The position numbers were made by a program, and so were the translations under genes. The notes beneath the pieces were generated by a model. It saw only the letters and a program-made list of their open reading frames with translations. It was not told the DNA's origin and did not search any database. A stretch of 64,000 nt of DNA from Pseudomonadota bacterium (GTDB lineage: Bacteria; Pseudomonadota; Alphaproteobacteria; UBA1280; RI-95), in NCBI GenBank assembly GCA_016125375.1, contig WGLU01000007.1, forward strand, positions 68,499-132,498. Direction: 5' to 3'. Position 1 is the first letter of the stretch, and every line of letters starts with the position of its first letter. Below, piece by piece: positions 10,768 through 64,000 of the stretch.

Positions 10768-11563
10768 CAGGCGTTCCTTTCCGTCGGCTGAGATAGATCA
10801 GGGCAAGACCGATTGCCATCATCGGTAGGCACAGAATCTGGCCCATGGTGATGACGGTGAAAATGCCGTGTTGCAGGTGGGGAATGTTATCCGGCTGGCG
10901 GAAGTACTCCACAACAAACCGGCACAGACCGTAGCCGAGCATGAAGTAGCCCGACACCTCGAACCGCCGCTGGCGCTTGATGGCAATCAGGTGCAGGACG
11001 GTGAACAGAATAACGCCTTCCAGAAAGGCTTCATAAAGCTGGGATGGGTGGCGCGGCAGCGGCCCCCCATGGGGGAAGACCATCCCCCACGGCACGTCGG
11101 TTACGCGGCCGAACAATTCGCCGTTGATGAAGTTGGCCAAACGGCCGAAACACAGGCCGAAGCAGATGCCTGGGGCAACCCTGTCGGAGAAATCAAAAAA
11201 GTGCATGCCATGCTTGCGGGTAAAAATAAGAATGGCCGTCAGCACGCCAATAAGGCCGCCGTGGAAGGACATGCCGCCCTGCCATGTTTTGATGATGGCC
11301 TCCGGATGCTCGAAAAAGAATGACGGGTTATAGAACAGCACATAGCCCAGCCTGCCACCGAGGACGATGCCGAGGATAATCCAGATAAAAATATCCTCTG
11401 CATGTTGGGGCGTAACGGGGCCGTTGGGGTAGTACTTGCGGCACAGGTATTTGAGGTAATGCAGGCCGGCAAAAAAGCCCGCCACATAGGCGATGCCATA
11501 CCAGTGCACGGCCACGGGGCCGAGGCGGATGGCAATGGGGTCGATATCCGGAAAGGCAATCAC
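10745..11563 (-). CDS. lgt: Prolipoprotein diacylglyceryl transferase
   Basis: Lgt signature segments (HWYGIAYVAGF, GGRLGYVLFYN, MSFHGGLIGV). Multi-TM. The 3' end overlaps the following gene by 23 nt. Confidence 0.9.
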   Translation of the reverse strand: MIAFPDIDPIAIRLGPVAVHWYGIAYVAGFFAGLHYLKYLCRKYYPNGPVTPQHAEDIFIWIILGIVLGGRLGYVLFYNPSFFFEHPEAIIKTWQGGMSFHGGLIGVLTAILIFTRKHGMHFFDFSDRVAPGICFGLCFGRLANFINGELFGRVTDVPWGMVFPHGGPLPRHPSQLYEAFLEGVILFTVLHLIAIKRQRRFEVSGYFMLGYGLCRFVVEYFRQPDNIPHLQHGIFTVITMGQILCLPMMAIGLALIYLSRRKGTPVEHPAAA

Positions 11564-13677: not shown

Positions 13678-14376
13678 ATGAGTGTTGTTACACTGCCTAT
13701 CGTGGAAAAGCACGACAAAATACGTCGATCGGCTGCCATTGCTACCCAATTGAAAGAGATGATTCTGGACGGTGTCCTTAAAGCAGGCGACCGTTTGCCG
13801 ACCGAGGAACAGTTGTGCCGCCACTTCGGCGTGTCACGCACCACACTGCGGGAATCTGTACAAATGCTGCGTGTTTCAGGCCTGCTGGAGGTTACTCCGG
13901 GCCGTGGCAGCTTTGTAAGGGTGCCTGACCTGCGCAAGATTATGGACGACGTTGCCGTATTCGGCTGCGCCGGTGGTATGGATGATGCCGAAGTCCAGAA
14001 CCTGATTGCCCTGCTGCAACACGAAATGGTGCGCCGTGCCTGCCGCGCACCTGCCGTTCGCAAAAGCAGCCTGACGGATTACCCGATCAGCCGATTGGCA
14101 CCGGTATCCGAGAACGAACGCGCCGAGCGTGCCTGGCTGCTGGCGATTGCTTCGGTCTCCGGTTACAAGGTTGGCCGTATGCTGCTGGAAGTGCTGTTGA
14201 CCATGACCCGCCGTCAGCGCCAACTGCGCCTGGCAAAAGCGGGTGAGGTACAGCGCCTGATGGAAGTGCAACTGCGCCTGAACGCCGCAATTATTGACGG
14301 TAACGCCGATATGGCCGGGCGGGTGATGGAAGCGTATCTGCAAAGCTGCAAGGATGGTACAACACTGAGTGCCTAG
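13678..14376 (+). CDS. GntR-family transcriptional regulator (FadR/FCD subfamily)
   Basis: N-terminal winged HTH: LPTEEQLCRHFGVSRTTLRESVQMLRVSGLLEVTPGRGSFV. All-helical C-terminal FCD-like domain. The ORF track start at 13585 is a GTG; the ATG at 13678 was chosen. Confidence 0.8.
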   Translation: MSVVTLPIVEKHDKIRRSAAIATQLKEMILDGVLKAGDRLPTEEQLCRHFGVSRTTLRESVQMLRVSGLLEVTPGRGSFVRVPDLRKIMDDVAVFGCAGGMDDAEVQNLIALLQHEMVRRACRAPAVRKSSLTDYPISRLAPVSENERAERAWLLAIASVSGYKVGRMLLEVLLTMTRRQRQLRLAKAGEVQRLMEVQLRLNAAIIDGNADMAGRVMEAYLQSCKDGTTLSA

Positions 14377-14921
14377 GCCTGTGCTGCCTCGTCCTTGAGG
14401 TACTGTTTAAGGACCCGGTAGGCGTCGTTGATCCTTTTGATCTTGTCGGCGCTTTCCGGGTCTTTATTGCGGTCGGGGTGATGCTCTTTGGCCAATTTAT
14501 GATAAACCTTGCGCACCTTGGCACTGTTCAGTGGCGGTGTAACACCCAGTTCTGCACAGGCGTCGCGCACATCGGGTGGCAGGTTGCTCGTTTCCGGCTT
14601 GGCTTCGGCAGGTTTGTGGTGCAGCTCCTCAAAAAAGCCGTATGGGTCCTCCGTGGCGCCAAAAGCTGCGGTCGCACCGACAAAAGACTTTGTGCCCAGT
14701 CCCATTTTCCATGTCGGACGGTTCCACGTCGCACCCCCATGCTGCATGGAGAAGATCTCCTGCGAGGAGAAACCGTTCAGCCCGTTCCAACGGGAATTGA
14801 ACTCCTTGATGTGTTTCAAGCAGTAGAATTGACGGTCATAAATATTGCGCGGGTCCCGCGGGGCAGGGTATTCACCTGGCTCCGTACATTCGGGATGTGC
14901 GCAGGGATGCACATCTGTCAT
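14373..14921 (-). CDS. J-domain protein with C-terminal DnaJ domain and N-terminal Cys/His-rich segment
   Basis: C-terminus KVRKVYHKLAKEHHPDRNKD...INDAYRVLK carries the HPD tripeptide of J domains. The N-terminus has CAHPEC...C..H. The start lies 4 nt after the prepilin peptidase stop. Confidence 0.7.
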   Translation of the reverse strand: MTDVHPCAHPECTEPGEYPAPRDPRNIYDRQFYCLKHIKEFNSRWNGLNGFSSQEIFSMQHGGATWNRPTWKMGLGTKSFVGATAAFGATEDPYGFFEELHHKPAEAKPETSNLPPDVRDACAELGVTPPLNSAKVRKVYHKLAKEHHPDRNKDPESADKIKRINDAYRVLKQYLKDEAAQA

Positions 14922-14924
14922 GCC

Positions 14925-15554
14925 CTACCATATAGACTGATAAAGCCGCAGAAACAAGAGTTGAACACCATCGGGGTAGAGTGCCATAAGCCAAATGGCG
15001 AGGCCCAATGCGGGACCGTAGGGGGTGTTGCCATCCTTTTGTGCGAAGGCGGCAAGGCCAAAACCGAAAAAAGCCGCCAGCGTAAGGGCCGGGAAAAAGC
15101 CGCCCAAGCCAGCCCATACGCCAAGTGCAGCCAGCATTTTAATATCCCCACCGCCAATATGCTCGGTGATGGTATCACCTTTGAGCTTAGCCACCACAAA
15201 AGAAACACTGAAACCAAAACACAGGCCAAGTGCGCCACCGGCAAAAGGGTCATACCAGTCGCCGTGGTTGGTGAACGTGAATGGGCTGAGCAGGCCCAGT
15301 AGCAGAATGGGGAAAGTATAAATATCCAGCAGCAGGAAATGGCTCAGGTCAATAGCCATGGTCCGTGCCAGCAGTGCAGCGAGCAGCGTGATATAAACAA
15401 TCGAGACGATGTTGAGTTCAGGAAGCCTGGGTGCGGCCATCGCGAGCAGTACAAGGAACAGTGCAACTGTACAAAGTGCGCGAAAACGCTGCGGCACACG
15501 CCCGTCAAGGGGATGTGCCGCAGCAATATGGCGCGCCTCAAACGACCGGAGCAT
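14925..15554 (-). CDS. Prepilin peptidase (A24 family, short TadV/CpaA-like form without N-terminal zinc-finger or methyltransferase extension)
   Basis: The second catalytic-Asp motif IGGGDIKMLAALGVWAG matches A24 GGGDVKLL. The first Asp lies in AIDLSHFLLLD. Polytopic membrane protein, 209 aa. Confidence 0.75.
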   Translation of the reverse strand: MLRSFEARHIAAAHPLDGRVPQRFRALCTVALFLVLLAMAAPRLPELNIVSIVYITLLAALLARTMAIDLSHFLLLDIYTFPILLLGLLSPFTFTNHGDWYDPFAGGALGLCFGFSVSFVVAKLKGDTITEHIGGGDIKMLAALGVWAGLGGFFPALTLAAFFGFGLAAFAQKDGNTPYGPALGLAIWLMALYPDGVQLLFLRLYQSIW

Positions 15555-15562
15555 GCCCGGGC

Positions 15563-16651
15563 TTAGCCGCAGGTCGCGGGGTTGGTCGGCGTGGTGCAGA
15601 ACTCAATGCTGGTCGTAAACGGCGCCTGACCAACGTTGGTTACGTTCGAGTTGTAGCGCAATCGGCGGTTCCATGGGTCAACTGCGTAGGTACGCGGCAG
15701 ACTCAGCAGCTCCATCAGGGCTTCCATGCTGTTCGTTGCCGATGCGGCGGCACCCACATCGTATGTCGCCTGAACACCCAAGCTGGCTGCTGTACGCAGG
15801 TCCGGCACGTAGTAAACGTCCAGGTTCTGGTTTTCCAGGCTGGAACGCGGGTAGTAGTTGGCGCGGCCTTCCTCGCCGATATCGTAGGTGTTATCGTCGG
15901 CCCGGCTGCTGCTGTTAATGTAGTTCGGGTTGGCCTGGTTGACGTCTTGCACATCCATCCAGTCGCAGCGGTCGTCGTTCGCCGGGTCCTGAGCCGCGTT
16001 GCCCGCCATGAACAGGGCCAGTTTGTTTGAGCAGTAGTTCTGGTTTTCTGTAAACAGGCGTGCCTCATAGGCAGAGAGGGCTTTGGTAATTTCCTCGCCC
16101 TGGCGGCGGAACACTTTTACACGGGACTTCTCGATGTCCAGGGTGGAGAATTTGCGGCCAATATCGTCATTGGCGGGTTGCCAGGCACCGTAGTCGGCAG
16201 CACAGGAACCGTTCGTCAGGAAGTCGCCTGTGCCAGAGTCGTTTGTGCCATCTTTACCGGGTGAATAAATGGCAAAGTACTGAACGGAGGGTACGACAAT
16301 ACCGTCGATGCTGACGTTGGTCTCGGTGCAGGTGTCGTAGACCCAGGCAGAACCCCAGGCATCAGCATTCAGGGTCTGGTTTTCTACCAGACCTGTATCA
16401 AAAACGAGCGTCTGGACGTTTGCCCACGAAGTGGGGACAGTTGTGATGCCTGTGGATATGTAATAGGTCTCGATACCTTTTGTAATCAGCTCTGCGGCAA
16501 CATCGGTGTTTTCCACTTTTGTGCGTTCGATACGCGACATTTGCATGCCGCCGAGCGAAACCGCCAGAATACTGGCGACAACCAGCGCAATACGCGCATC
16601 CATACTGAACATGGCGCCGTGCTGGTTACGAAGAATGTTGGTCGTTCTCAT
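15563..16651 (-). CDS. Large pilin-like protein (362 aa) with prepilin-type leader MRTTNILRNQHG/AMFSMDARIALVVASILAV and N/T/Y/D-rich C-terminal domain ending in a Cys pair
   Basis: The leader and hydrophobic helix parallel the 22935..23546 pilin (shared G-AMFxxDAR[IV]AL). C-terminal ...CTTPTNPATCG is disulfide-loop-like. The start was taken at the Met at 16651 (GGGGG SD 10 nt upstream), not the ORF-track start at 16702. Confidence 0.55.
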   Translation of the reverse strand: MRTTNILRNQHGAMFSMDARIALVVASILAVSLGGMQMSRIERTKVENTDVAAELITKGIETYYISTGITTVPTSWANVQTLVFDTGLVENQTLNADAWGSAWVYDTCTETNVSIDGIVVPSVQYFAIYSPGKDGTNDSGTGDFLTNGSCAADYGAWQPANDDIGRKFSTLDIEKSRVKVFRRQGEEITKALSAYEARLFTENQNYCSNKLALFMAGNAAQDPANDDRCDWMDVQDVNQANPNYINSSSRADDNTYDIGEEGRANYYPRSSLENQNLDVYYVPDLRTAASLGVQATYDVGAAASATNSMEALMELLSLPRTYAVDPWNRRLRYNSNVTNVGQAPFTTSIEFCTTPTNPATCG

Positions 16652-16701
16652 GGTGTTAATACCCCCGTATCTTACCATTTTGTTGTGCGTGCCCCGTGTC
16701 A

Positions 16702-17487
16702 TTACTTCGCACCCGCAGCTGCCGAGGCTTCGCGCATATCAATAATATCTGTATAGGTTTCTGACCACGGTGCCGGTGTTGTAAATGATATTGTGGCTGT
16801 TTGGGATGTTGCGCGGGCATAGGTAAAGTTATTGCCCCAGAAGTCCCGTTGCGTGTACACGTCCCGGATATCCGTATTGAACGTGCCGTTTGTCGGCAGG
16901 TGGTGCGTGCCGGACTCCGCCGTACCATCTACCATGGCGCGGCGCCACCAGTCGTAAACAAAGTCCGTCAGGGCAGCCATGTTACCCTTGGAAATTTCAA
17001 GCTGGCGGGCCCGTATGACCGATGTGTCGATAACAGCGACATCGTCGCGTTTGGTAATATCGCTCGTGAGCATGTTGGCATCTGTAGATGTAGAGGCATC
17101 TGCGCGGATAAATGCATCGTCAGAGTTGGAAATCATGACCCGTTGGCGACCTGTCGCGTTATCCATCGCTGTAGAGTTGATGACGATGGCCTGACCGTTG
17201 CGCGTGTCCAGACTTGCAGAGGTGGAATTGCGGATACGGGTTGCATCAATGCCATTATTGAAGTTGGCTGCTGTTTCCATGAGCAGAGCGTTTTCTACAC
17301 CGTCTTTAAGCTCTTGCAGCTGTTTCTTTTTGGCTTCGGCCTGCTGGGCCTCGATTTTGGCCAGTTCGCGTTCGGCCTGTTTGCGCATCGCAGTGGAGAA
17401 AACAGCCAGACCAAGCACCAAACCGATCATGAACGGGGAAAAGTTACCCCGTTGGCATTTGAGCGATTTGGCAATCCTTGCCAGCAT
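16702..17487 (-). CDS. Pseudopilin/minor-pilin-like protein (261 aa), leader MLARIAKSLKCQRG/NFSPFMIGLVLGLAVFSTAM followed by coiled-coil
   Basis: The leader ends in Q-R-G like the other two pilin-like genes. A 20-residue hydrophobic helix is followed by a Lys/Glu-rich helix, then a Ser/Thr/Asn-rich domain. Confidence 0.5.
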   Translation of the reverse strand: MLARIAKSLKCQRGNFSPFMIGLVLGLAVFSTAMRKQAERELAKIEAQQAEAKKKQLQELKDGVENALLMETAANFNNGIDATRIRNSTSASLDTRNGQAIVINSTAMDNATGRQRVMISNSDDAFIRADASTSTDANMLTSDITKRDDVAVIDTSVIRARQLEISKGNMAALTDFVYDWWRRAMVDGTAESGTHHLPTNGTFNTDIRDVYTQRDFWGNNFTYARATSQTATISFTTPAPWSETYTDIIDMREASAAAGAK

Positions 17488-17496
17488 AGCCGTACG

Positions 17497-18294
17497 TCAT
17501 ACCCCCATACGCAGTTCGTAATCGCGACCTGCAACTGACACCACAACAGCGCGGTGCTTAATTTCCTTTACTGTCACACTAATATTATAGCGGCCGTCAT
17601 TAGTTTTTGACTTACGTAGCTGGTCTTTCTTCTCGCGGTACTCGCGCAGGGCCTCGTCCCGGTATTCCTGATATTGCTGGTAGGCGGTTTCGGATACGCT
17701 GTCCGGTTCCGGCATCTGGGCATAGATGGTTTCTTCGACCTTGTCGGTGCTATCGAGCTTGACGTTTACAGGCAGCAGGAAACGGTCACCCGGAGAGAAC
17801 TTCTTGTTGTTAATCATCACATAAGGCGAGGGGGCTGCGATAACCGATTGCAGGACAATACGGCCAAGGTCTTTGGTAAAGTCATAATCGCTGAAATCGA
17901 ACACCTGACCTTCATGCGCCGTATTGATGATGGTGTGCAGGTAATTACGGAATTCATCCAGGTTCAACTGGTCAGAAGCGGTCAGGTCCGGTAACTGCGG
18001 CAGGTTGATATTAATTTGCTCTGCAGGGGCCTCCTGCTGTTCTTTTTCCGTTGCAAACGGATCAATAAGGCCGCGTTGCAGCAAGGATGTAATGGTTGGC
18101 AGCAGGTCGGCACCCTCTTTCGCACGGCCGCGGCCCGCGCGCTTTTGCACCTGCATTTCCTGAATCAGATTGTCGCGTTTAAAGTCAAATTCGGGCTGAC
18201 CACGGAACGTTATCGGCCACTGCTGCGCCAAAGCAGACGTAGCGGCAAACGCAACCAGAACAAACGCAAAAAGTGGTAGCTTAACTTGGTGCAT
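17497..18294 (-). CDS. Secreted/periplasmic operon protein of unknown family (signal peptide MHQVKLPLFAFVLVAFAATSALAQQ)
   Basis: Cleavable Sec-type signal. The Glu/Gln-rich mature protein sits in the middle of the pilus-like operon. The start was chosen at the Met at 18294. Confidence 0.5.
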   Translation of the reverse strand: MHQVKLPLFAFVLVAFAATSALAQQWPITFRGQPEFDFKRDNLIQEMQVQKRAGRGRAKEGADLLPTITSLLQRGLIDPFATEKEQQEAPAEQININLPQLPDLTASDQLNLDEFRNYLHTIINTAHEGQVFDFSDYDFTKDLGRIVLQSVIAAPSPYVMINNKKFSPGDRFLLPVNVKLDSTDKVEETIYAQMPEPDSVSETAYQQYQEYRDEALREYREKKDQLRKSKTNDGRYNISVTVKEIKHRAVVVSVAGRDYELRMGV

Positions 18295-18796
18295 TGACGG
18301 TCTCCGGGTTGTACACATAAACAAAGCCTTTAATCTGAATCATGCGCTGGTTGGGCTCAGGCTCGGCACCGGAGGGAAGGGACAGGCAGCCGAAGCACGC
18401 ACTGAAAAGCACAAAGCCGTTCATGTTCTCCAGTTTGTTCACCAGGCGCAGGCCGGTCACAAAGTCTGTCAGGCCCGTAATCTCGAAGTTGTGGCGGTAG
18501 AAAAAGCGGTTGTCCTGAGAGTTTGGGTCCGCTTCGCTGGTATATTTGAACTCAACGTTTTTGGGCAGCTCAATTGCACGTTCAATGTTCAGCTTCTGGT
18601 CTTCGCCTTTTTTAAGGGTGACTTCCTTGATGGCTTCAATTTTTTTGGCAAACTTTCCGGCTTCCTGCTTGTCGCGGATTGCCTGAGCCAGCTGATTACG
18701 CTGAACTTTGATGCCGTTAAGATTTTCCATGAACTGGAACCCGCCAACAATAAGGGCAAAGGCGGAGAGAATCAGACCAATCGTGAACTGAATCAT
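18281..18796 (-). CDS. N-terminally membrane-anchored operon protein (GspM/PilO-like topology, 171 aa)
   Basis: A single N-terminal TM helix (IQFTIGLILSAFALIVGGF) is followed by a coiled-coil and a beta-rich C-terminus. The topology resembles assembly-platform components. There is no sequence-family match. Confidence 0.45.
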   Translation of the reverse strand: MIQFTIGLILSAFALIVGGFQFMENLNGIKVQRNQLAQAIRDKQEAGKFAKKIEAIKEVTLKKGEDQKLNIERAIELPKNVEFKYTSEADPNSQDNRFFYRHNFEITGLTDFVTGLRLVNKLENMNGFVLFSACFGCLSLPSGAEPEPNQRMIQIKGFVYVYNPETVNAPS

Positions 18797-19941
18797 TTTT
18801 GTTCTCCTTCCTCTTTAGGCTCTGCCTTGGCGGCCTGGCCGGGTTTCATGGTTTCGTTAATCATGCGCTGTTCCTGGGTATGCTTGCGAATTTGTTCGTC
18901 CAGCGTGCTCAGCACAACCAGCCCTTCCAATGTCAGGTCTTCGCGGTTGACAGGGGGTTTACGGATTTCCGCCATGGTCACACTCTGCTTCAGCAGTTCT
19001 TTCGCTATCGGTTCCTGTTCCAGATAGCTCTTGTAGGCTTTCGGCATAGAGGTAATGGTGACCAGCGCAATATCACTTGGCTGGTTTGGTGTGGGGTTTT
19101 CTACTTTAAAGTCGTGCACTTTAAAGTCAGCATTATGCACGGCCATCGCGATATCTTTCAGCACGGTAGAGTACAGATAGCGGTAGCGCATAAACTGTTC
19201 CTGCTCCTGCACACGGCTGATAATCTGGCGGAAGTTGTCGCCAAAGCCGCTTTCCTGTCGGGCAATGGCGACCTGACGGCGGAGGTTGATGACCTCCTGC
19301 TCCTGATCTGTGGTCAGGTAGTACATACCCCCAGCAATGCCCATGCCGATCAAAAGAACATGGAAACCATACCGCTCCTGAATGGTGGGTTTGTTCAACC
19401 ACATGTTCGTATCGAGGGGGACAGACTCCAGTGGCTCAAAAGTAGCATCCAGTTCGGATGTTTTCTCGTTCTTCCAGTTTGTGTAAACCGTTTTCTTGGT
19501 TGTTTTTGGGTACGCCTTGAAAACCTGCTGCAGGTCTTTAACCCATGTTTCTTCAGAGGTGGGCTGGATATAACTGTCGTTAATGTCCCAGTGGAAGATA
19601 ACGTCGGCAGCAATCATGGCATTCAGAGTGTTCGGCGGTGTTTTGCTGGCGCGACAAAAGTCAAACAACGCAATATTCCGCCCATGGTGCATGAGCAGCA
19701 TCTGGTCTTCTTCATGGTCTGTGGGGCTTAAGGCGGCGGCAGGGTCAACATCCGCACCGTCAATATCGCGCGGTGCAAAAAAGCCGAGCATCAGGTTGCG
19801 GCGGCTTTGATCGTCTGTCAGGTCTTTCCAGTTGTCGGCAAACAGCACCTCACCGTTTTCAGGGTAGTACTCTACGCGGTTCAAGCCCACAAAGCAGCGG
19901 TTCTTGAAGCGGGTAATGTTGACTTTTGGTGCTGTAGCCAT
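18793..19941 (-). CDS. Bitopic operon protein (382 aa) with ~190-aa cytoplasmic domain, one central TM helix and periplasmic domain (GspL/PilM-N-like architecture)
   Basis: The central hydrophobic segment HVLLIGMGIAGGMYYLTT splits two soluble domains. It lies immediately downstream of the GspF-like gene, as GspL does in T2SS operons. Confidence 0.45.
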   Translation of the reverse strand: MATAPKVNITRFKNRCFVGLNRVEYYPENGEVLFADNWKDLTDDQSRRNLMLGFFAPRDIDGADVDPAAALSPTDHEEDQMLLMHHGRNIALFDFCRASKTPPNTLNAMIAADVIFHWDINDSYIQPTSEETWVKDLQQVFKAYPKTTKKTVYTNWKNEKTSELDATFEPLESVPLDTNMWLNKPTIQERYGFHVLLIGMGIAGGMYYLTTDQEQEVINLRRQVAIARQESGFGDNFRQIISRVQEQEQFMRYRYLYSTVLKDIAMAVHNADFKVHDFKVENPTPNQPSDIALVTITSMPKAYKSYLEQEPIAKELLKQSVTMAEIRKPPVNREDLTLEGLVVLSTLDEQIRKHTQEQRMINETMKPGQAAKAEPKEEGEQK

Positions 19942-19950
19942 GGGTTGTCC

Positions 19951-21048
19951 CTAGTTTTGCGCAAACACAATTGAAAGCATTTCCATCAACATGACGGCAC
20001 CGCCGGCAATCCAGAGGAAGGCTGAAGTGACGCCAACGAATCTGCTGTTGGCATCCGTCAGAAGGCGGTCAAGAATGGTGTAGGCGTGGTCCATGCCCTC
20101 CACCATCACGTCGTTGATGCCGTCCGTGTTACCGGCATAGTTCTCGGACACTTTTACAGGTGTCACGGCAATAGGCGGGAAGCCGGCCTTGTCCATTGCA
20201 TCAGACATTTGCCCACCGGCAGTAATCACCTGGTTGAACATGTCAATCCGTCGGCGGAGCACAACGTTGGTGGCTAACGCTTCCATAATCGGAATCATCT
20301 GCTTCGGTTTTACACCGCTTCGGATAAGGTGCGGAAAGTACAGCAACATGTTTGTATAAACTTTGTAGGAGGTGTACTTGCCAAGCAGGGGCACTTTCAG
20401 CAGGTAAAAGTCCAGCCAAAAGCGCCCTTGTGTGGTGCGGATCATGGAGTAGGACACAATAATAAAAATGACAAGGAAAGCGGCAATAAAGTGCCAGTGC
20501 GCAGCTACGCCGTGGGTAAAGTTCATCACGAACTCTGACACCATGTTCGGGTCCTTGCCCTGTGCCTTACGCATCTGCATCAGGTTGGGCAGGGTGTTCA
20601 GACCTGTGTTGAAAATAGACGCAAACGACAGCAGCAGCATGGCAATAGGCGTGAAAAGCTCGGCAAAGCCTGCCCGTTGCGATTCCATTTTCTTATCTTC
20701 CAGCTTACGCAGAACCGAGAAGGCCTCGTACATGTTGTTGGAGGCCTCGCCAGCCATAATCGCGGCACGGTGAATGTCGGTAAACAGGATGTATTCGATC
20801 TCGGCGGCCTTGCTCAGGCTTTTGCCTTGCGCCACCTTCTGGGCGATAGCCAGGAGGCCGGAAGAAATATCGTCTTTGCCTTCGGTTTTGAAGGCTTTTG
20901 CAACGGCACGCAGACCGGACTCCGAGGTCTGGCCCGACCGGAGCATCTGTGCCATAAGGAAGAACAGCCTTTCCCGGTCCGCCATGGAAACATCGCGGAC
21001 TTTGGGCCCAAGGCCGCTACTCCCGGTGAATATTTTCGAGATCTGCAC
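19951..21048 (-). CDS. Type II secretion / type IV pilus inner-membrane platform protein (GspF/PilC family)
   Basis: 365 aa with three TM helices. It has two repeated T2SSF cytoplasmic domains (LRSGQTSESGLRAVAKAF..., LIRSGVKPKQMIPIMEALATNV...). Confidence 0.85.
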   Translation of the reverse strand: MQISKIFTGSSGLGPKVRDVSMADRERLFFLMAQMLRSGQTSESGLRAVAKAFKTEGKDDISSGLLAIAQKVAQGKSLSKAAEIEYILFTDIHRAAIMAGEASNNMYEAFSVLRKLEDKKMESQRAGFAELFTPIAMLLLSFASIFNTGLNTLPNLMQMRKAQGKDPNMVSEFVMNFTHGVAAHWHFIAAFLVIFIIVSYSMIRTTQGRFWLDFYLLKVPLLGKYTSYKVYTNMLLYFPHLIRSGVKPKQMIPIMEALATNVVLRRRIDMFNQVITAGGQMSDAMDKAGFPPIAVTPVKVSENYAGNTDGINDVMVEGMDHAYTILDRLLTDANSRFVGVTSAFLWIAGGAVMLMEMLSIVFAQN

Positions 21049-22732
21049 TGAAGAAACGCTCCAGTTCTTCTACACTTGTGATACCACTTTTGACGTGGCG
21101 CAAACCGTTACCCAGCATATCGACCATACTGCCGCTGTTGAGTGCCTGTTCACGTACCACATCAATCCAGTCCGGGCGCAGTCGGTTGCCCGACCAAACG
21201 TTCCGGGTTACTTCCTTCCGCCACAGCTCCAGCACTTCCTCCAGCGCGATACGTCCAATGTATCCGCGGTAGTGGCAGTGCTCGCAGCCGTTGTGGTTCT
21301 GTTTGTAAATGACGTCGCCTTCGGCGAACTTGACGATTTTGGGGCGTACTGCCTTCATGCCTTCGGCGAACTGTCCGTGCAGTTCAATCGGCACCTTGCA
21401 TTTGGGGCACAGGCGACGGACCAGACGCTGCGCGACAATACCACGCACGTTGGAGAAGATCTGTTCTGCGGGCACGCCCCGCTGCAGCAGACGGTCAAGA
21501 CACATGAACGTATCGTTGGCGTGCAGGGTTGTAATAACAAGGTGACCAAGGTTACCGGCGTCGATACAACGGCGGGTATCCTCGGGGCTACGCACCTCAC
21601 CGATGTACAGCACATCGGGGTCCAGACCCAGTGCGGCATACATGAAGGATTCAAGGTTCAGACCTGCACTCAGGTCCTCTTCGGTCTGGATAACGTTATC
21701 CATCCGTTCCTCGATCTGTTTCTCGTAAGAAATCACGTTCTGGCCGGGACGCTGACCGCGACGGATGGTCATACGGGCGGCGGTTGATTTACCCGCACCG
21801 GTCGGGCCGCAGAAGATGATACACCCTTCCTCGAACTTCATCAGCTGGTCGAGCTTTTTAAAGGTTTGCTCGCTGTAGCCGAAATCCTCCAGCTTGCCTT
21901 CAAACGGGCGCATGTAACGCATGGCCAGTTTGGCGGTTCCTTCCAGAGAGATAGGCTGCGTCGTGTAACGAATGTCCACACGTTCACGGCTTGAAATCTC
22001 GAACGTCATACGGCCGTAGAGAGGCTTTTTATAGTTCTCTGCACGTACACCGGCAATGTGGCGCAGACGGCCGAGGACGCGTTCGTACACCTCGATCGGC
22101 AGGGCAACCAGTTCTTCCAGTTCGCCGTCAAATCGGGCCATAACTGTGGGTTTACGGTTCAGGATCTCGATGTGCAAGTCGGATGCGCCGTTTTTGTAGG
22201 CGGTACGGATAATCTCGTCCGTGAGCGAGATGATGGCATCGTCGTTACCGGCGTTAATCTGTGCATAAGCGTTTTCCACAAGGAACTTGAGGGAGTGACC
22301 CTCGCGTTTGCTCATCCGTTCGATGGCGTCTTCGATAGATTTGGCCGGTGCCCAGATGAACTCGTGCTTGTTTTTGCGGTTACGCAGCACGATTTCGCTC
22401 ACCAGGCGTTTGTTCGGCAAGTCGGCAGCAACCCATGTCACCGTGCCGCGGCCCAGCTCGATAGGGCAGGCGGTGTAGTGGAGCATAAACTCCCGGGTGA
22501 TGCCTTCAATCTGGTGGGGGGTGATTTTACCCATCTCGGCAGCGGATTTAACCGGAAAATCATAGGCGATGGCGCGGTAGCGGGACTGTTGTGCCTCGGT
22601 CAACTTACCGGATTTACCAAGTGCTTCGATAAGCGCATCCGGGTTTTTCTGCACAGTAACAGGGAGCGACTGCAAGTCGCTGATGGTGACCACCTGATCA
22701 CTAATCATCAGGTCAACAATATCCATCCCCAT
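21017..22732 (-). CDS. Type II secretion / type IV pilus assembly ATPase (GspE/PilB family, with tetracysteine zinc motif)
   Basis: N-terminal T2SSE_N-like region, ASDLHIE, Walker A FCGPTGAGKST, Asp box GEVRSPED, His box TTLHAN, and CPKC...CEHC zinc site. It overlaps the GspF start by 32 nt. Confidence 0.9.
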   Translation of the reverse strand: MGMDIVDLMISDQVVTISDLQSLPVTVQKNPDALIEALGKSGKLTEAQQSRYRAIAYDFPVKSAAEMGKITPHQIEGITREFMLHYTACPIELGRGTVTWVAADLPNKRLVSEIVLRNRKNKHEFIWAPAKSIEDAIERMSKREGHSLKFLVENAYAQINAGNDDAIISLTDEIIRTAYKNGASDLHIEILNRKPTVMARFDGELEELVALPIEVYERVLGRLRHIAGVRAENYKKPLYGRMTFEISSRERVDIRYTTQPISLEGTAKLAMRYMRPFEGKLEDFGYSEQTFKKLDQLMKFEEGCIIFCGPTGAGKSTAARMTIRRGQRPGQNVISYEKQIEERMDNVIQTEEDLSAGLNLESFMYAALGLDPDVLYIGEVRSPEDTRRCIDAGNLGHLVITTLHANDTFMCLDRLLQRGVPAEQIFSNVRGIVAQRLVRRLCPKCKVPIELHGQFAEGMKAVRPKIVKFAEGDVIYKQNHNGCEHCHYRGYIGRIALEEVLELWRKEVTRNVWSGNRLRPDWIDVVREQALNSGSMVDMLGNGLRHVKSGITSVEELERFFSADLENIHRE

Positions 22733-22934
22733 GTCCTCCTGCGGCGCCCGTCTTATTACGTTGTTTTGCGCCCCCGATAAACCGCTTTATCAAACGTGCC
22801 TAAAGGTTTGTATTTTTTATCCTAACACAGCTTATCGGCGGGCTGTAACCCTTTTTCAAATCGCAAAACACAAGGCCACTGCCGGCGTACCGGCAGTGGC
22901 CTGGTTTGTAACGTCAGGCTGTTGCCAATACGTC

Positions 22935-23546
22935 TTAGCTACGTGTACGCGACAGCAGGTAAGCAACTGTCTCGTTGTCACCTGGCGAGCAGGTGCTGTC
23001 GTAACGGAAGTTACCGGTGTTACCAGTGCCGCCGGTACCATCGATTTTCTTCTCCAAATCGCCAGCAATCTCGCACGGTACGGACGACAAGGTCAGCCAC
23101 TTGCCGCTGATACCGGCAGAGGTGTTGATGGCGGACGGTGTCCAGTTGGCATCAATACGACCGTCACGCAGGGCGAACACGCCGTAGCCGGCAGTGTGCG
23201 TGTTGGTGGCGATTGTAATGTAGGGCCCGTTCCAGTTCAGGGTGCTGTTTGCGTCAGCATACAGGTTCTGGAAGCCCACACCGGTACCGGTGGTGTTCGG
23301 GGCGGTGGAACTGGTGTCTTGCGGCACGTCCACACCCGTGTCGAACACGAAGTTGATGTAGCCTTTGGAAATGTTGTCAAACTCGGTCAGTACGCCGGTA
23401 ACCCGGGTATCACGAACCGCCGAGAACACAGCCACACCGGCAATCGCCGAGAGGCCTGCGAAAATGGCCAGAGCCACACGGGCGTCCAGACCAAACATCG
23501 CGCCGCGCTGTGAGCGCAGCTCTTGAGATACGTTCTTCATAAACAT
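22935..23546 (-). CDS. Major pilin-like protein (first gene of the operon), leader MFMKNVSQELRSQRG/AMFGLDARVALAIFAGLSAIAGV, Gly/Thr/Asn-rich globular domain with C-terminal Cys pair
   Basis: Class-III-signal-like organisation: a charged leader ending in G, then a ~21-aa hydrophobic helix. Two Cys near the C-terminus (VPCE...DSTCSPG). The AAGGAG SD favours the start at 23546. Confidence 0.6.
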   Translation of the reverse strand: MFMKNVSQELRSQRGAMFGLDARVALAIFAGLSAIAGVAVFSAVRDTRVTGVLTEFDNISKGYINFVFDTGVDVPQDTSSTAPNTTGTGVGFQNLYADANSTLNWNGPYITIATNTHTAGYGVFALRDGRIDANWTPSAINTSAGISGKWLTLSSVPCEIAGDLEKKIDGTGGTGNTGNFRYDSTCSPGDNETVAYLLSRTRS

Positions 23547-23719
23547 GGTCATGCTCCTTACATCGGACCGTTATTCTGGGCCTGTTGAGTCAGGCTTAAT
23601 ATTTTTTTCTAGGTATTCCCCATACCACTACTTTATAGCAAGGGTTGCAAGTCAAGCAGCTGAACGTGGCTGACAGGACAAATATATCCGAACACCTGTT
23701 GCCTTTTTGCAATAATAAC

Positions 23720-23767: not shown

Positions 23768-24313
23768 TTAGTCTTTCAGCGTTTTCAGGTACGCGATGAT
23801 GTGGGCACGCTCTTCCGGCTTGCGGATAGACAGCGACATTTTGGTGCCTGGCATATAGTCTTTCGGGCTGGCCAGGAACTCAAAAATCATCTCGGGCTTC
23901 CAAGTTTCGCCAGCTTCGTGTTTCTTGGCGAAAGATGCTGTGTACGAGAAGTCATCGCGGTGTGCAACCTTGGAACCAACAACACCCCACAGGTTAGGAC
24001 CGGTTTTGTTAGGGCCGCCTTTTTCAAAGGTGTGGCAGGCTTTGCATTTGTTGGCGATTTTGGCGCCAATGGCAGGGTCGCCGGCAACCAGCAGGGCGTC
24101 AACATCAACGGGTTTATCGTCATGCTTTGCGGCAGCGCCTTCGCCGGCTTCGGCAGTTTCAGGTGCAAGTGCGGCCAGCACAGGATTCATTTCGGCCTTA
24201 CCGTGCTCGGGCAGCAGGTGGCCGGTCGTGGCAAAATGGCCGGAGAAATAAACAATTGCAAACAGGTCCGCGGCCAGCACGGTCACAATAAACACACGCA
24301 TGAGGTTTTTCAT
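23768..24313 (-). CDS. Membrane-anchored mono-haem cytochrome c (CycM-like)
   Basis: CKACH haem-binding motif and N-terminal TM anchor (LMRVFIVTVLAADLFAIVYF). Start at MKNLMRV (24313) with a GGGGG SD. Confidence 0.8.
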   Translation of the reverse strand: MKNLMRVFIVTVLAADLFAIVYFSGHFATTGHLLPEHGKAEMNPVLAALAPETAEAGEGAAAKHDDKPVDVDALLVAGDPAIGAKIANKCKACHTFEKGGPNKTGPNLWGVVGSKVAHRDDFSYTASFAKKHEAGETWKPEMIFEFLASPKDYMPGTKMSLSIRKPEERAHIIAYLKTLKD

Positions 24314-24448
24314 CAGGTACCCCCCGGGGCATAATAGATTTATTTTGCTTTTGGTCCGTCTCTTAACACGTGCGTTAAGAGCAACTGCCAAAATATAGGC
24401 GCAAGGTAGATTGTTCGTCAACCGTTTTACCATTAGCATGGTACGGGT

Positions 24449-25282
24449 ATGAAGAACGCGCCAACGCACATCATCATGGGAAGAATTGTCGGCCTCGCTG
24501 CGGGGTTGTTTATGTTCGCCGACCTTGTTCCCGCCGTTTTATGCATTATTGTCGGGCTGGCGTGTGACATTCTGTATGCCAGATATATTTTCCCGCTGCG
24601 TTACCGGGACATCCTTCTGCAGGATTACAGTGTGGCCGTGATCGAGCTGTGCGCAAAAATGTGCAAGTCTGACGGTGTGGTGACAAAGGAAGAAATAGAA
24701 GCCTTCCGGCGCAGGCTGATGATTGATGCGCAGGACATGACCATCGTGTCGGCCATTTTTAACAAAGCCAAAAAGAGTGCCCTGGGTTTTGAGGTGCAGG
24801 CGGCAAAAATCCACAGCATTTTACGGACGAGTCCGCAGCAGTTGCTGGCGATCATCGAAGTGCTGTACGAGATTGCCCTTTCGGACAATTTTGTGGCCCC
24901 GGGTGAGCGTAACTTTATCATCAAAGTGGGGCAGGTGTTTGGCTTGACGCCGCTGCAACTGAACGAGATAGAACGCCGCCTTGCTGTTGGCGCCCGCCAG
25001 ACCTCGGAAGGGGCGCGCAATTATGAGCAGTCGTTCGAGCAGGAAGAGGGGAACAACCCGTACCAGAAGTCGGCCATCAGCGGTAAGGACCCCCTCAAGA
25101 TTCTGGGCGTGAAAGACGGTGCCAGCAAGGAAGAGGTAAAGCGTGCGTACCGTAAGCTGGTCGCCAAATACCACCCGGATAAGGTCCGCGGCGATGGTGC
25201 CAGCCAGAAAGAGATCGACCGCGCGGAAGAGAAAATGACCGAGCTGAATGCCGCCTATGCGGCGTTAATGAAGCGCCTGTAG
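24449..25282 (+). CDS. djlA: Co-chaperone DjlA-like protein (N-terminal TM, TerB-like middle domain, C-terminal J domain)
   Basis: The TM helix at the N-terminus and the C-terminal ILGVKDGASKEEVKRAYRKLVAKYHPDK... (HPD) match the DjlA architecture. Confidence 0.7.
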   Translation: MKNAPTHIIMGRIVGLAAGLFMFADLVPAVLCIIVGLACDILYARYIFPLRYRDILLQDYSVAVIELCAKMCKSDGVVTKEEIEAFRRRLMIDAQDMTIVSAIFNKAKKSALGFEVQAAKIHSILRTSPQQLLAIIEVLYEIALSDNFVAPGERNFIIKVGQVFGLTPLQLNEIERRLAVGARQTSEGARNYEQSFEQEEGNNPYQKSAISGKDPLKILGVKDGASKEEVKRAYRKLVAKYHPDKVRGDGASQKEIDRAEEKMTELNAAYAALMKRL

Positions 25283-45443: not shown

Positions 45444-46691
45444 TTGCCCGTGACCGTTCGTGAAAATACGCTTTTGGCCTGGCGGGCCTCGGCCTTTATG
45501 CTGGGTGGCGCGTTGCCGCTGATTCTGATGGGCCGTGCCGTGATGGCTGTGTGGCTGTTGCTGGGTATTATTTTTGGCCTGATTGCCATGGGACAGGCCG
45601 CACTGAAAGCCGAAACCTGGACGTCTGCCCTCGGCACGACCGGTGTAAAGATTTGCGGTGTTGTTTTTTTGACTTACTCCGTATCCTGCGCGTTTTCCGT
45701 CGATCCTGTCTATTCCTATAGCCGCCTGCTGGAAGTGGGCGGATTGATGCTGGGTGGCCTGCTGCTGTTTGTTGTTTTGCGGGACATGCCTGCCCGCGCC
45801 CTCAACTACGGGCTGAAAATCATGGGCATTACGACGATTTTGATGATGGGTTTGTGTCTGGCGGATGCCTTTTCCAACAGCCAGCGCCTGAGCATGGGCC
45901 TGCATGGCAGCAAAAAATGGCAGAGCGACAGCCGTTTGAACTATATGAGCTCCGTTCTGGCCGTGCTGCTGCCTTACATGTGGGTGTGGTTGCACCGTAA
46001 ATGGCGCGACGGCGAATATGCCGCCCGCCTGCTGGCCATGCCACTGGCCGCGGCCGGATTCTTTACTGTATTTGCCTGTGGTGGCCGTGCCGGTTGGGTG
46101 GCTGCTGTGGTGGCAACAACGCTGTATCTGGTTTTGGGTGGCCGCTGGCACGGTCTGGTGCTGCACCGTCGTCACTGGCTGATGCTGCCGTTTATTCTGA
46201 TTGCCGGTCCGGTCGGCTACGGTATGTCCCGCGGGTGGGATGTGCTGTGGGGACGCCTGACGTTCTGGAACGAACCGAATGGTCTGGCTATGTCCGGCCG
46301 TGGGGAAATCTGGCGTTTTGCCGTTTCTCATCTGGGTGATAATCCGATTACAGGTATCGGGATGAATGCGTTCCGCAAGCTGGATATTCCGCAGGGGCTG
46401 GATCTGGCCTCCAATGCCCATCCGCATAACTTCCTGATTCAGCTGCTTTTGGAAACGGGCATTCTGGGCACGCTCCCTACATTGGCGCTTATTGGCTTGG
46501 TCTTGGCCTATCTGTGGCGGTATGCGCAGGTCAATCTGTACGGCCTTGCTGGTTTGTGCAGCGTGAGTGCCTTCCTGGTCGCATCGCTGGCGAATACATC
46601 TATCTTTCAGGCATGGTGGCTGGTGTTCTTTGTTTTTGGTGCCATTTTGGGTGTACGGCTGTGCCGGGTCGAGCGGAAGGCGGTGTCATGA
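45444..46691 (+). CDS. O-antigen ligase / Wzy_C-domain polytopic membrane protein
   Basis: About 10 TM helices and a periplasmic loop with NAHPHNFLIQLLLETGILG (the O-antigen ligase family AHN..LQ...E.G signature). Confidence 0.7.
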   Translation: MPVTVRENTLLAWRASAFMLGGALPLILMGRAVMAVWLLLGIIFGLIAMGQAALKAETWTSALGTTGVKICGVVFLTYSVSCAFSVDPVYSYSRLLEVGGLMLGGLLLFVVLRDMPARALNYGLKIMGITTILMMGLCLADAFSNSQRLSMGLHGSKKWQSDSRLNYMSSVLAVLLPYMWVWLHRKWRDGEYAARLLAMPLAAAGFFTVFACGGRAGWVAAVVATTLYLVLGGRWHGLVLHRRHWLMLPFILIAGPVGYGMSRGWDVLWGRLTFWNEPNGLAMSGRGEIWRFAVSHLGDNPITGIGMNAFRKLDIPQGLDLASNAHPHNFLIQLLLETGILGTLPTLALIGLVLAYLWRYAQVNLYGLAGLCSVSAFLVASLANTSIFQAWWLVFFVFGAILGVRLCRVERKAVS

Positions 46692-63059: not shown

Positions 63060-63273
63060 CAGCTCCCGTCGCACAGAAAGCGACACGCTCTTAGAAATTG
63101 AGAATAGGTGAGAAAAAGGATTCTGTGGGGCTCGGATAACGCCTAATTTTAGAAAGGCTGTTCCGAGAGTACCACAAGAATCACCCGTAATGAAAATTAT
63201 GGGTTTTAACTTGTGATGCGAAGTGAATAGCCAGACAAACTCGTCATCGGTTTTAGCGCCGAATGACTTCATC

Positions 63274-64000
<727 letters not shown>

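Follow-up and report, generated by a model that had tools for sequence, protein, structure and literature searches.

The 64,000-nucleotide stretch of contig WGLU01000007.1 analysed here (hereafter, the window) encodes, in the eighth gene of a nine-gene operon on the minus strand, a 362-residue protein that is probably a minor pilin with two modules, belonging to a divergent machine for type IV filaments (pili or pseudopili). The open reading frame is real and conserved, and its product belongs to the pilin class, with a pilin fold and a head of the type found in GspG, the major pseudopilin of the type II secretion system (T2SS). The operon is conserved, the leader is common to its pilin-like proteins, and the two-module architecture is conserved as well. 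Feature coordinates are collected in Table 1.

The protein begins MRTTNILRNQHGAMFSMDARIALVV, ends CTTPTNPATCG and is identical to NCBI MBI1364086.1, annotated as ‘hypothetical protein’. An alternative in-frame ATG at 16702, which overlaps the stop codon of the upstream gene (TAATG), would yield 379 residues, with 17 additional leader residues and an unchanged mature protein; the alignment of homologs and the NCBI gene call favour the 362-residue form, whereas the Logan gene call gives 379 residues. Homologs were sought in a word-indexed search of 5.8 billion proteins and in an exhaustive profile search of 1.84 billion representative proteins. The former returned 11 proteins, all unnamed or ‘hypothetical’, and the latter 314 hits at E ≤ 10−3 and 28 at E ≤ 10−30. 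All 11 database proteins keep the full-length architecture, as do 28 species-level genomes and the 314 profile hits, which rules out a fusion artefact.

With AlphaFold2 (AF2), the protein was modelled at a predicted local distance difference test (pLDDT) score of 71 using an 11-sequence alignment, and at a pLDDT of 87.1 and a predicted template modelling score (pTM) of 0.81 using a 75-sequence alignment. The pilin-like N-terminal helix that structure prediction was expected to reveal is present: a 51-residue helix (residues 16 to 66), i.e. a predicted extended α1 of ~50 residues like that which packs on the antiparallel β-sheet of pilins, is followed by a β head with helices at 76–84 and 92–95 and strands at 104–115, 118–130 and 164–169. 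The original prediction had described everything after this helix as a ~300-residue, low-complexity-tinged domain rich in Asn, Thr, Tyr and Asp. The enrichment is present (8.0% N, 9.4% T, 4.7% Y and 7.2% D) but modest, and the 205- and 261-residue pilin-like proteins encoded in the operon have a similar composition; the low-complexity character is due mainly to a 25-residue insertion (residues 232–256). Instead of a single domain, there are two parts, a GspG-like head (residues ~67 to 170) and a conserved, mostly well-predicted module of ~190 residues.

Within the head, D97-x-W99-G, S130-x-G132-x-D134 and D162-D163-I-G are invariant in the alignment. Their counterparts in GspG, as in PulG and EpsG, are DPWG, SLGxDG and DDIGNW, the last of which lies at the C-terminus of GspG; therefore, the extra module starts where GspG ends. 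The Pfam T2SSG profile matched 8 of the 11 homologs (E ≤ 1) over residues ~35 to 123, with a best E-value of 1.6 × 10−7, and four homologs exceeded the gathering score of 21 bits; the 362-residue protein itself was not matched, and a profile comparison with the PDB reached GspG at E = 1.7. A Foldseek search of the PDB with the first model returned nothing below E = 1. The head is most similar to GspG; the next structural matches of the pilin part were CofA (7.5/7.7) and TcpA (5.6/5.9), followed by PilA4, Streptococcus sanguinis PilB (5.7), Clostridioides difficile PilJ (5.5), EpsI and others. A fold comparison with lectins, adhesins, PilY1, PilC and GspK had been proposed; none of the first four was among the structural matches in the PDB, and the similarity to GspK was weak (4.1).

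Compared with GspG (PulG and EpsG; PF08334, T2SSG; TIGR01710), the protein is alike in its Q-R/H-G leader, its long α1, its three-strand head and the DxWG, SxGxDG and DDIG motifs, and most members of its family are matched by the Pfam T2SSG profile. It differs in length (362 vs. ~140 residues), in the 190-residue module that follows the end of GspG, in the mature N-terminus (AMFSMD vs. FTLxE) and in scoring below the Pfam and TIGR thresholds.

The C-terminal module comprises a 45-residue helix (171–215), the Cys pair C207/C229, the motifs NYYPRS and LxLPxxYAxDPW(G/N)RxLxYxSN, and two terminal strands (330–334 and 348–352), with two further short helices at 309–315 and 320–323; confidence was low at 236–251 and 286–292, within a mostly irregular stretch. 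Conservation extends over the ALxxYE helix, NYYPRS, LGLPxxYAxDPWGRxLxYxSN and PPFxA, and the C207/C229 pair is kept in 45–47 of the 75 aligned sequences. When a profile of the module was compared with PDB sequences and Pfam, only chance-level matches were obtained. The N/D-rich insertion is a gap in all homologs, and its residues 236–251 have a pLDDT below 50.

To some extent, the C-terminal half resembles the N-terminal half of the family. The hhalign comparison of the two halves aligned residues 40–69 with 172–201 (Prob 83%, P = 8.4 × 10−6), and a second alignment paired L..DxWGxxxxY with LGLP..DPWxRxLxY (P = 0.008); controls with reversed sequences and unrelated families gave P ≥ 0.007. The duplication signal is weak, amounting to 30 confidently aligned columns and a marginal second segment. 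The N-module unit also aligned with residues 156–234 of the 261-residue protein encoded by the neighbouring gene (Prob 91%, E = 1.2 × 10−6). These alignments suggest that a GspG-like head unit may have been duplicated to build larger accessory pilins. In the 261-residue protein, the GspG-like unit is only C-terminal (156–234), after a spacer of ~110 residues.

The terminal loop, previously described as C-x9-C, is actually C-x8-C (CTTPTNPATC). Its first cysteine, C352, occurs only in the 362-residue protein and its closest full-length relative, and C361 is conserved in 48 of the 75 aligned sequences. The partner of C361 shifts, lying in RRLCY in some sequences, in SICFSxxxxC in others and in C-x21-24-C in distant relatives, so that a C-terminal disulfide with a variable loop is plausible as a family trait.

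The proposal of a glycosylated filament subunit, whose N/T/S-rich surface would be modified by an oligosaccharyltransferase, can be assessed on the same sequence. We consider it very unlikely. Ser, Thr and Asn are abundant in the protein, which does contain six N-x-[ST] sequons, but this number is not an enrichment (4.4 ± 1.8 in shuffled sequences, P = 0.27), conservation of five of these sites extends to no more than 9 of 35 close relatives, and only one site has the form D/E-x-N-x-S/T. N-glycosylation was thus rejected on sequon statistics, and with it the basis of the original proposal. O-glycosylation is conceivable. The window does encode, 30 kb away, a membrane protein with a Wzy_C domain, of the superfamily that includes WaaL, PglL and TfpO/TfpM; however, this gene is unlinked to the operon, its product is far below the TfpM cut-off (32 vs. 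600 bits), and the conserved operon contains no glycosylation or oligosaccharyltransferase genes. The Wzy_C (O-antigen ligase) protein (45444–46691, plus strand; 415 residues, nine predicted hydrophobic segments, Pfam E = 3.4 × 10−17) is encoded between a YgfZ-like gene and a gene for an asparagine-synthase-type amidotransferase. It could be a WaaL, perhaps simply the lipopolysaccharide O-antigen ligase, or else a protein O-oligosaccharyltransferase.

The leader is short and basic, ends in Gly and is followed by a hydrophobic segment of ~20 residues (MRTTNILRNQHG↓AMFSMDARIALVVASILAVSLGG, the arrow denoting the predicted cleavage site), as in class III signals. A QxG leader recurs in the major-like and 261-residue-like pilins at about 30 loci, and the leader and hydrophobic helix are, as originally predicted, common to the 205-residue pilin-like protein encoded by the first gene of the operon and, in part, to the 261-residue protein. 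After Q-x-G, the 362-residue and major-like classes continue with A-[ML]-F-[GS]-[LM]-D-A-R (QxG↓AMF[GS]MDAR in the 362- and 205-residue proteins), whereas the 261-residue class has x-[FVL]-S-P-F-M and no acidic residue. The mature N-terminus of the 362-residue protein thus bears the non-canonical motif AMFSMDARIALVV, in which the acidic residue, Asp, would be at +6 if cleavage occurs after G12 and at +5 if it occurs after Ala13. The gene lies directly upstream of the prepilin peptidase gene, as had been noted, with 8 nucleotides between its stop codon and the ATG of the A24 peptidase. This peptidase has no N-terminal A24_N/methyltransferase domain, its orthologs are about 200 residues long, and D69 and G134-x-G136-D137 are conserved across 23 of them. 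We infer that cleavage would occur after G12 and, because the peptidase has no methyltransferase domain, that the new N-terminus is probably unmethylated.

Alternatively, the protein could remain uncleaved, as a bitopic inner-membrane component that serves in assembly or alignment and is not a filament subunit. Its large size and its non-canonical class III signal, with no GFxxxE match, would be compatible with such a role. However, the protein has almost the same leader and mature N-terminus as the putative major pilin, both of them invariant in the family, the A24 peptidase gene follows immediately, distant relatives carry canonical prepilin leaders, and a head of the GspG type belongs to a subunit that polymerises; we regard this alternative as very improbable.

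The operon encodes a dedicated peptidase (PF01478) together with an assembly ATPase (PF00437) and a platform protein (PF00482). The ATPase scored 233 bits against the NCBIfam PilB model and 220 bits against GspE, and its best PDB matches were PilB, PilF and GspE, all above BfpD; it is the only ATPase of the operon, and no PilT is present there. The three conserved accessory proteins of 382, 171 and 275 residues have no family assignment in Pfam or NCBIfam. The first has a central transmembrane segment, the second an N-terminal one, and the third a hydrophobic N-terminus that we read as a signal peptide and a weakly T2SSB-like C-terminus. All three pilin-like proteins of the operon are annotated as ‘hypothetical protein’ and are not matched by prepilin profiles. 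The 261-residue protein is without an acidic residue after the cleavage site, as are GspK-type tip subunits.

A strong hairpin separates the 205-residue gene, the first of the operon, from the ATPase gene; such an arrangement is typical where a major subunit is expressed at a high level. By acting as an attenuating terminator, the hairpin may determine how much major pilin is made relative to the machinery. The view that the 362-residue protein is not a structural pilin is in accord with this arrangement, since the operon-opening gene with its terminator fits the role of main subunit better; on these grounds, a major-subunit role of the 362-residue protein was considered unlikely. Its place beside an atypical pilin and the peptidase, the separate major-like gene with a terminator, the variable number of paralogs and its bulk suggest a low-abundance accessory member of the priming or tip complex, by analogy with TcpB, CofB and GspK.

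Relatives of the protein are encoded in 28 GTDB species genomes, all of them metagenome-assembled genomes (MAGs) and most titled Alphaproteobacteria. Every related locus examined has the same operon order, and the three closest loci (L001 to L003) also share the flanking housekeeping genes. The number of large-pilin paralogs varies from one to three per operon, with two or three tandem copies in L001, L007 and L037; the three copies in L037 seem to replace the 261-residue gene. This variation is the pattern that would be expected of diversifying accessory or tip subunits. In L001, one large-pilin copy follows the peptidase gene. A tblastn search of the PLSDB plasmids gave no match.

More distant relatives (P0043 to P0062; 360–390 residues, E-values from 10−10 to 10−18) match most of the length of the protein, and many end in TCG as it does. 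These proteins have canonical prepilin leaders (GFTLxE; PF07963, TIGR02532) and weak GspG matches. One of them, P0050 in locus L034, holds the same operon position as the 362-residue gene, the order in L034 being ATPase, platform, proteins of 437, 179, 198 and 316 residues, large pilin and an A24_N fragment. Directly upstream of the ATPase are a weak TcpQ-like match and what may be a lipoprotein (with a Cys-containing signal sequence) that matches Secretin, Secretin_N_2 and STN; the region after the operon (14583–17917) contains TrbC-like and TraE-like genes and a UvrD-like helicase gene. These neighbours suggest a conjugative element whose type IVb system resembles a thin pilus. When the L034 proteins were used as queries, neither a secretin nor a TcpQ homolog was found in the window or within ±10 kb of the operon in loci L001 to L033.

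The GspG-like head raises the question of whether the machine is a pilus or a periplasmic, T2SS-like pseudopilus for protein secretion, in which the 362-residue protein would be a cap or piston akin to GspK or the GspHIJK complex, with the C-terminal module contacting the cargo or the outer-membrane channel. Most of the data fit such a role, which is distinguished chiefly by its output, yet we consider it unlikely. It would be in line with the similarity of the head to GspG, including DDIG and DxWG, with the scores of the ATPase and platform protein, which are almost as high for GspE/GspF as for PilB/PilC, and with the single ATPase and lack of PilT. The QRG leader resembles those of GspG proteins such as PulG. 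Furthermore, systems of the toxin-coregulated pilus (TCP) type show an overlap of pilus and secretion functions (PMC10120004). However, a T2SS comprises GspC, GspD, GspH to GspM and a secretin, and searches of the window with Pfam and NCBIfam gave no match to GspC, D, H, I, J, K, L or M and no secretin nearby; the canonical-leader relative has as its neighbours a Secretin_N_2 secretin, a weak TcpQ-like match and conjugation genes, a setting that we read as pointing to a pilus of a type IVb-like kind.

Among minor pilins of known systems, TcpB of Vibrio cholerae and CofB of enterotoxigenic Escherichia coli are large subunits that start the assembly of the filament and are located at its tip (PMC5207764, PMC6048534). 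The present system is alike in having one oversized pilin-like subunit with extra C-terminal material, a single-ATPase operon and an acidic residue kept in α1; the type IVb major pilins CofA and TcpA are among the best structural matches of the pilin part, and the canonical-leader relative adjoins a Secretin_N_2 secretin and a weak TcpQ-like match. In contrast, the β-repeat and β-sandwich (lectin-like) domains of TcpB and CofB were not matched by the 362-residue protein in the structural search, their genes directly follow the major pilin gene instead of standing at the operon end, the ATPase here is nearer to PilB/GspE than to BfpD, and the head is GspG-like, not of the type IVb fold. A pilin module with a grafted second module is also found in PilB and PilC of S. 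sanguinis; such modular pilins polymerise via the pilin module and are likely exposed at the tip, where a bulky extra module is a known trait (PMC8179133). In C. difficile PilJ, a second pilin-like domain projects from the filament (PMC9556784), and the internal similarity of the N- and C-terminal halves suggests a degenerate pilin head in the present protein, too. It differs from PilB and PilJ in the lack of a von Willebrand factor A (vWA) or lectin module, in its diderm host and in having no sequence homology to them beyond the pilin fold. Like GspK, it is the largest pilin-like protein of its operon and contains extra helical material; unlike GspK, which has no acidic +5 residue, it keeps Asp (the 261-residue neighbour is the one without), it has no Pfam T2SSK match, and the combination of a missing acidic residue with an inserted α-domain was not found. 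The C-terminal β-propeller of the PilY1/PilC tip adhesins, which are not pilins, is absent.

The operon is best read as the home of a low-abundance accessory subunit in a divergent, unclassified type IV filament system. On this reading, the precursor would enter the inner membrane via its hydrophobic N-terminal helix, and the adjacent short A24 peptidase would remove the 12-residue leader after the invariant Q-x-G, leaving a probably unmethylated N-terminus. The PilB/GspE-type ATPase and the GspF-type platform would then build the GspG-like module into a filament that consists mainly of the 205-residue subunit. The ~190-residue module, apparently grafted exactly where GspG ends, would be exposed as an interaction surface; it appears to be derived from a duplicated pilin head unit and may be stabilised by disulfides. 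The protein would most likely reside in a priming or tip complex, beside the second atypical pilin that has no acidic residue. Low abundance, a tip position, and ligand or cargo binding are suggested by analogy with the modular minor pilins, as is the tip-adhesin function originally proposed.

Several observations weigh against this reading. The canonical G↓F/M-x-x-x-E motif is missing, PF07963 and TIGR02532 being unmatched at E ≤ 1, and the protein itself has no meaningful pilin match in Pfam or NCBIfam. Its mature N-terminus, acidic residue included, is nearly identical to that of the putative major pilin, which would also be compatible with incorporation along the filament shaft. No adhesin, lectin or solved fold was matched by the C-terminal module, so that a binding role would be purely by analogy, and the extra module could be either appended to the pilin sheet or inserted into it. 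Finally, no secretin was found anywhere in the window, nor within ±10 kb of the operon in the alphaproteobacterial loci L001 to L033, so that surface exposure of the filament is hypothetical.

The system mixes traits of several classes, namely a PilB/GspE-like motor, a TadV-sized peptidase, a GspG-like head, a Secretin_N_2-linked relative and a non-canonical class III signal, and the pilin profiles tested (Pfam and NCBIfam) do not cover the pilin-like proteins of the operon. It is possible, and we advance it only tentatively, that these loci form a clade of type IV filaments unassigned by the literature and profiles compared. Such a clade, found only in MAGs, most of which are labelled Alphaproteobacteria, would be distinguished by a re-registered signal (QxG↓AMFxxDAR, with the acidic residue at +6 and a conserved Arg at +8), a TadV-sized peptidase without a methyltransferase domain alongside a PilB/GspE-type motor, the lack of a linked secretin, and accessory pilins that reuse the GspG-like head, conceivably twice in the 362-residue protein and once at the C-terminus of the 261-residue protein. 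The chromosomal system may be a domesticated, re-wired derivative of a canonical-leader secretin operon beside conjugation genes.

Table 1 Features of the 362-residue protein, its operon and its paralogs. Positions are those of the window or, where a locus is named, of that locus.
Feature	Position	Strand	Remarks
Coding sequence, 362-residue bimodular pilin-like protein	15563–16651	minus	ATG start; stop 15563–15565
Leader peptide MRTTNILRNQHG, residues 1–12	16616–16651	minus	ends in family-invariant Q-x-G; Q10 and G12 invariant in alignment
Predicted mature N-terminus and α1 helix, residues 13–66	16454–16615	minus	AF2 helix 16–66
GspG-like globular head, residues 67–170	16142–16453	minus	D97-x-W99-G, S130-x-G132-x-D134-G, D162-D163-I-G
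C-terminal module, residues 171–362	15566–16141	minus	AF2
Insertion specific to the 362-residue protein, MDVQDVNQANPNYINSSSRADDNTY, residues 232–256	15884–15958	minus	N/D-rich, predicted disordered
C-terminal Cys-x8-Cys loop CTTPTNPATC, residues 352–361	15569–15598	minus	
Short A24 prepilin peptidase, 209 residues	14925–15554	minus	Pfam PF01478, 1.2 × 10−9
Second pilin-like protein, 261 residues, leader QRG↓NFSPFMIGLVLG	16702–17487	minus	acidic residue absent
Three conserved accessory genes (382, 171 and 275 residues)	17497–19941	minus	present in 30–33 loci
Platform protein, GspF/PilC type	19951–21048	minus	Pfam T2SSF 2.7 × 10−14; NCBIfam GspF 3.1 × 10−23
Assembly ATPase, PilB/GspE type, with MshEN domain	21017–22732	minus	Pfam T2SSE 8.5 × 10−67
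Strong hairpin, 13-bp stem with 10 G-C pairs, then T-run	22873–22902	minus	just after the 205-residue pilin gene
Putative major pilin, 205 residues, leader SQRG↓AMFGLDARVALAIF	22935–23552	minus	first gene of the operon
Large-pilin paralogs, L001	8239–9264 and 10001–11008		
Large-pilin paralogs, L007	9986–11023 and 11042–12082		
Large-pilin paralogs, L037	1107–4321		

Directly after the pilus genes, the window encodes a 182-residue protein with a Cys/His-rich N-terminus and a C-terminal J (DnaJ) domain (14373–14921, minus strand). Its homologs are located at 11086–11640 in L001, 11678–12232 in L002 and 4998–5573 in L037. The gene follows the peptidase gene in the window, L002, L003 and L037, and follows the second large-pilin paralog in L001, and the linkage holds in a distant lineage with 30% GC (phmmer, 1.3 × 10−39); this linkage may reflect inherited synteny or a functional operon link. 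On the other flank, immediately upstream of the operon, a second J-domain protein, which also has a TerB domain (24449–25282, plus strand), is encoded next to a cytochrome c gene (23768–24469), and the arrangement in L002 is alike. The 5′ half of a bacterial 16S ribosomal RNA gene (63273–64000, plus strand) is cut by the end of the window.

Current concepts of pilus biology are left unchanged by these findings. Type IV filaments are largely recognised and classified through the prepilin motif GFxxxE and a small set of pilin profiles, which this operon escapes. As no secretin is linked to the operon, it also poses, for a diderm, the question of whether the filament passes through the outer membrane and, if so, by what route. 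The leader and mature N-terminus, together with a peptidase without a methyltransferase domain, offer a natural example of co-variation between substrate and enzyme. The GspG-type head appears to be reused as a building block of larger accessory pilins, and the new C-terminal module is conserved from systems with canonical leaders to those with non-canonical ones.

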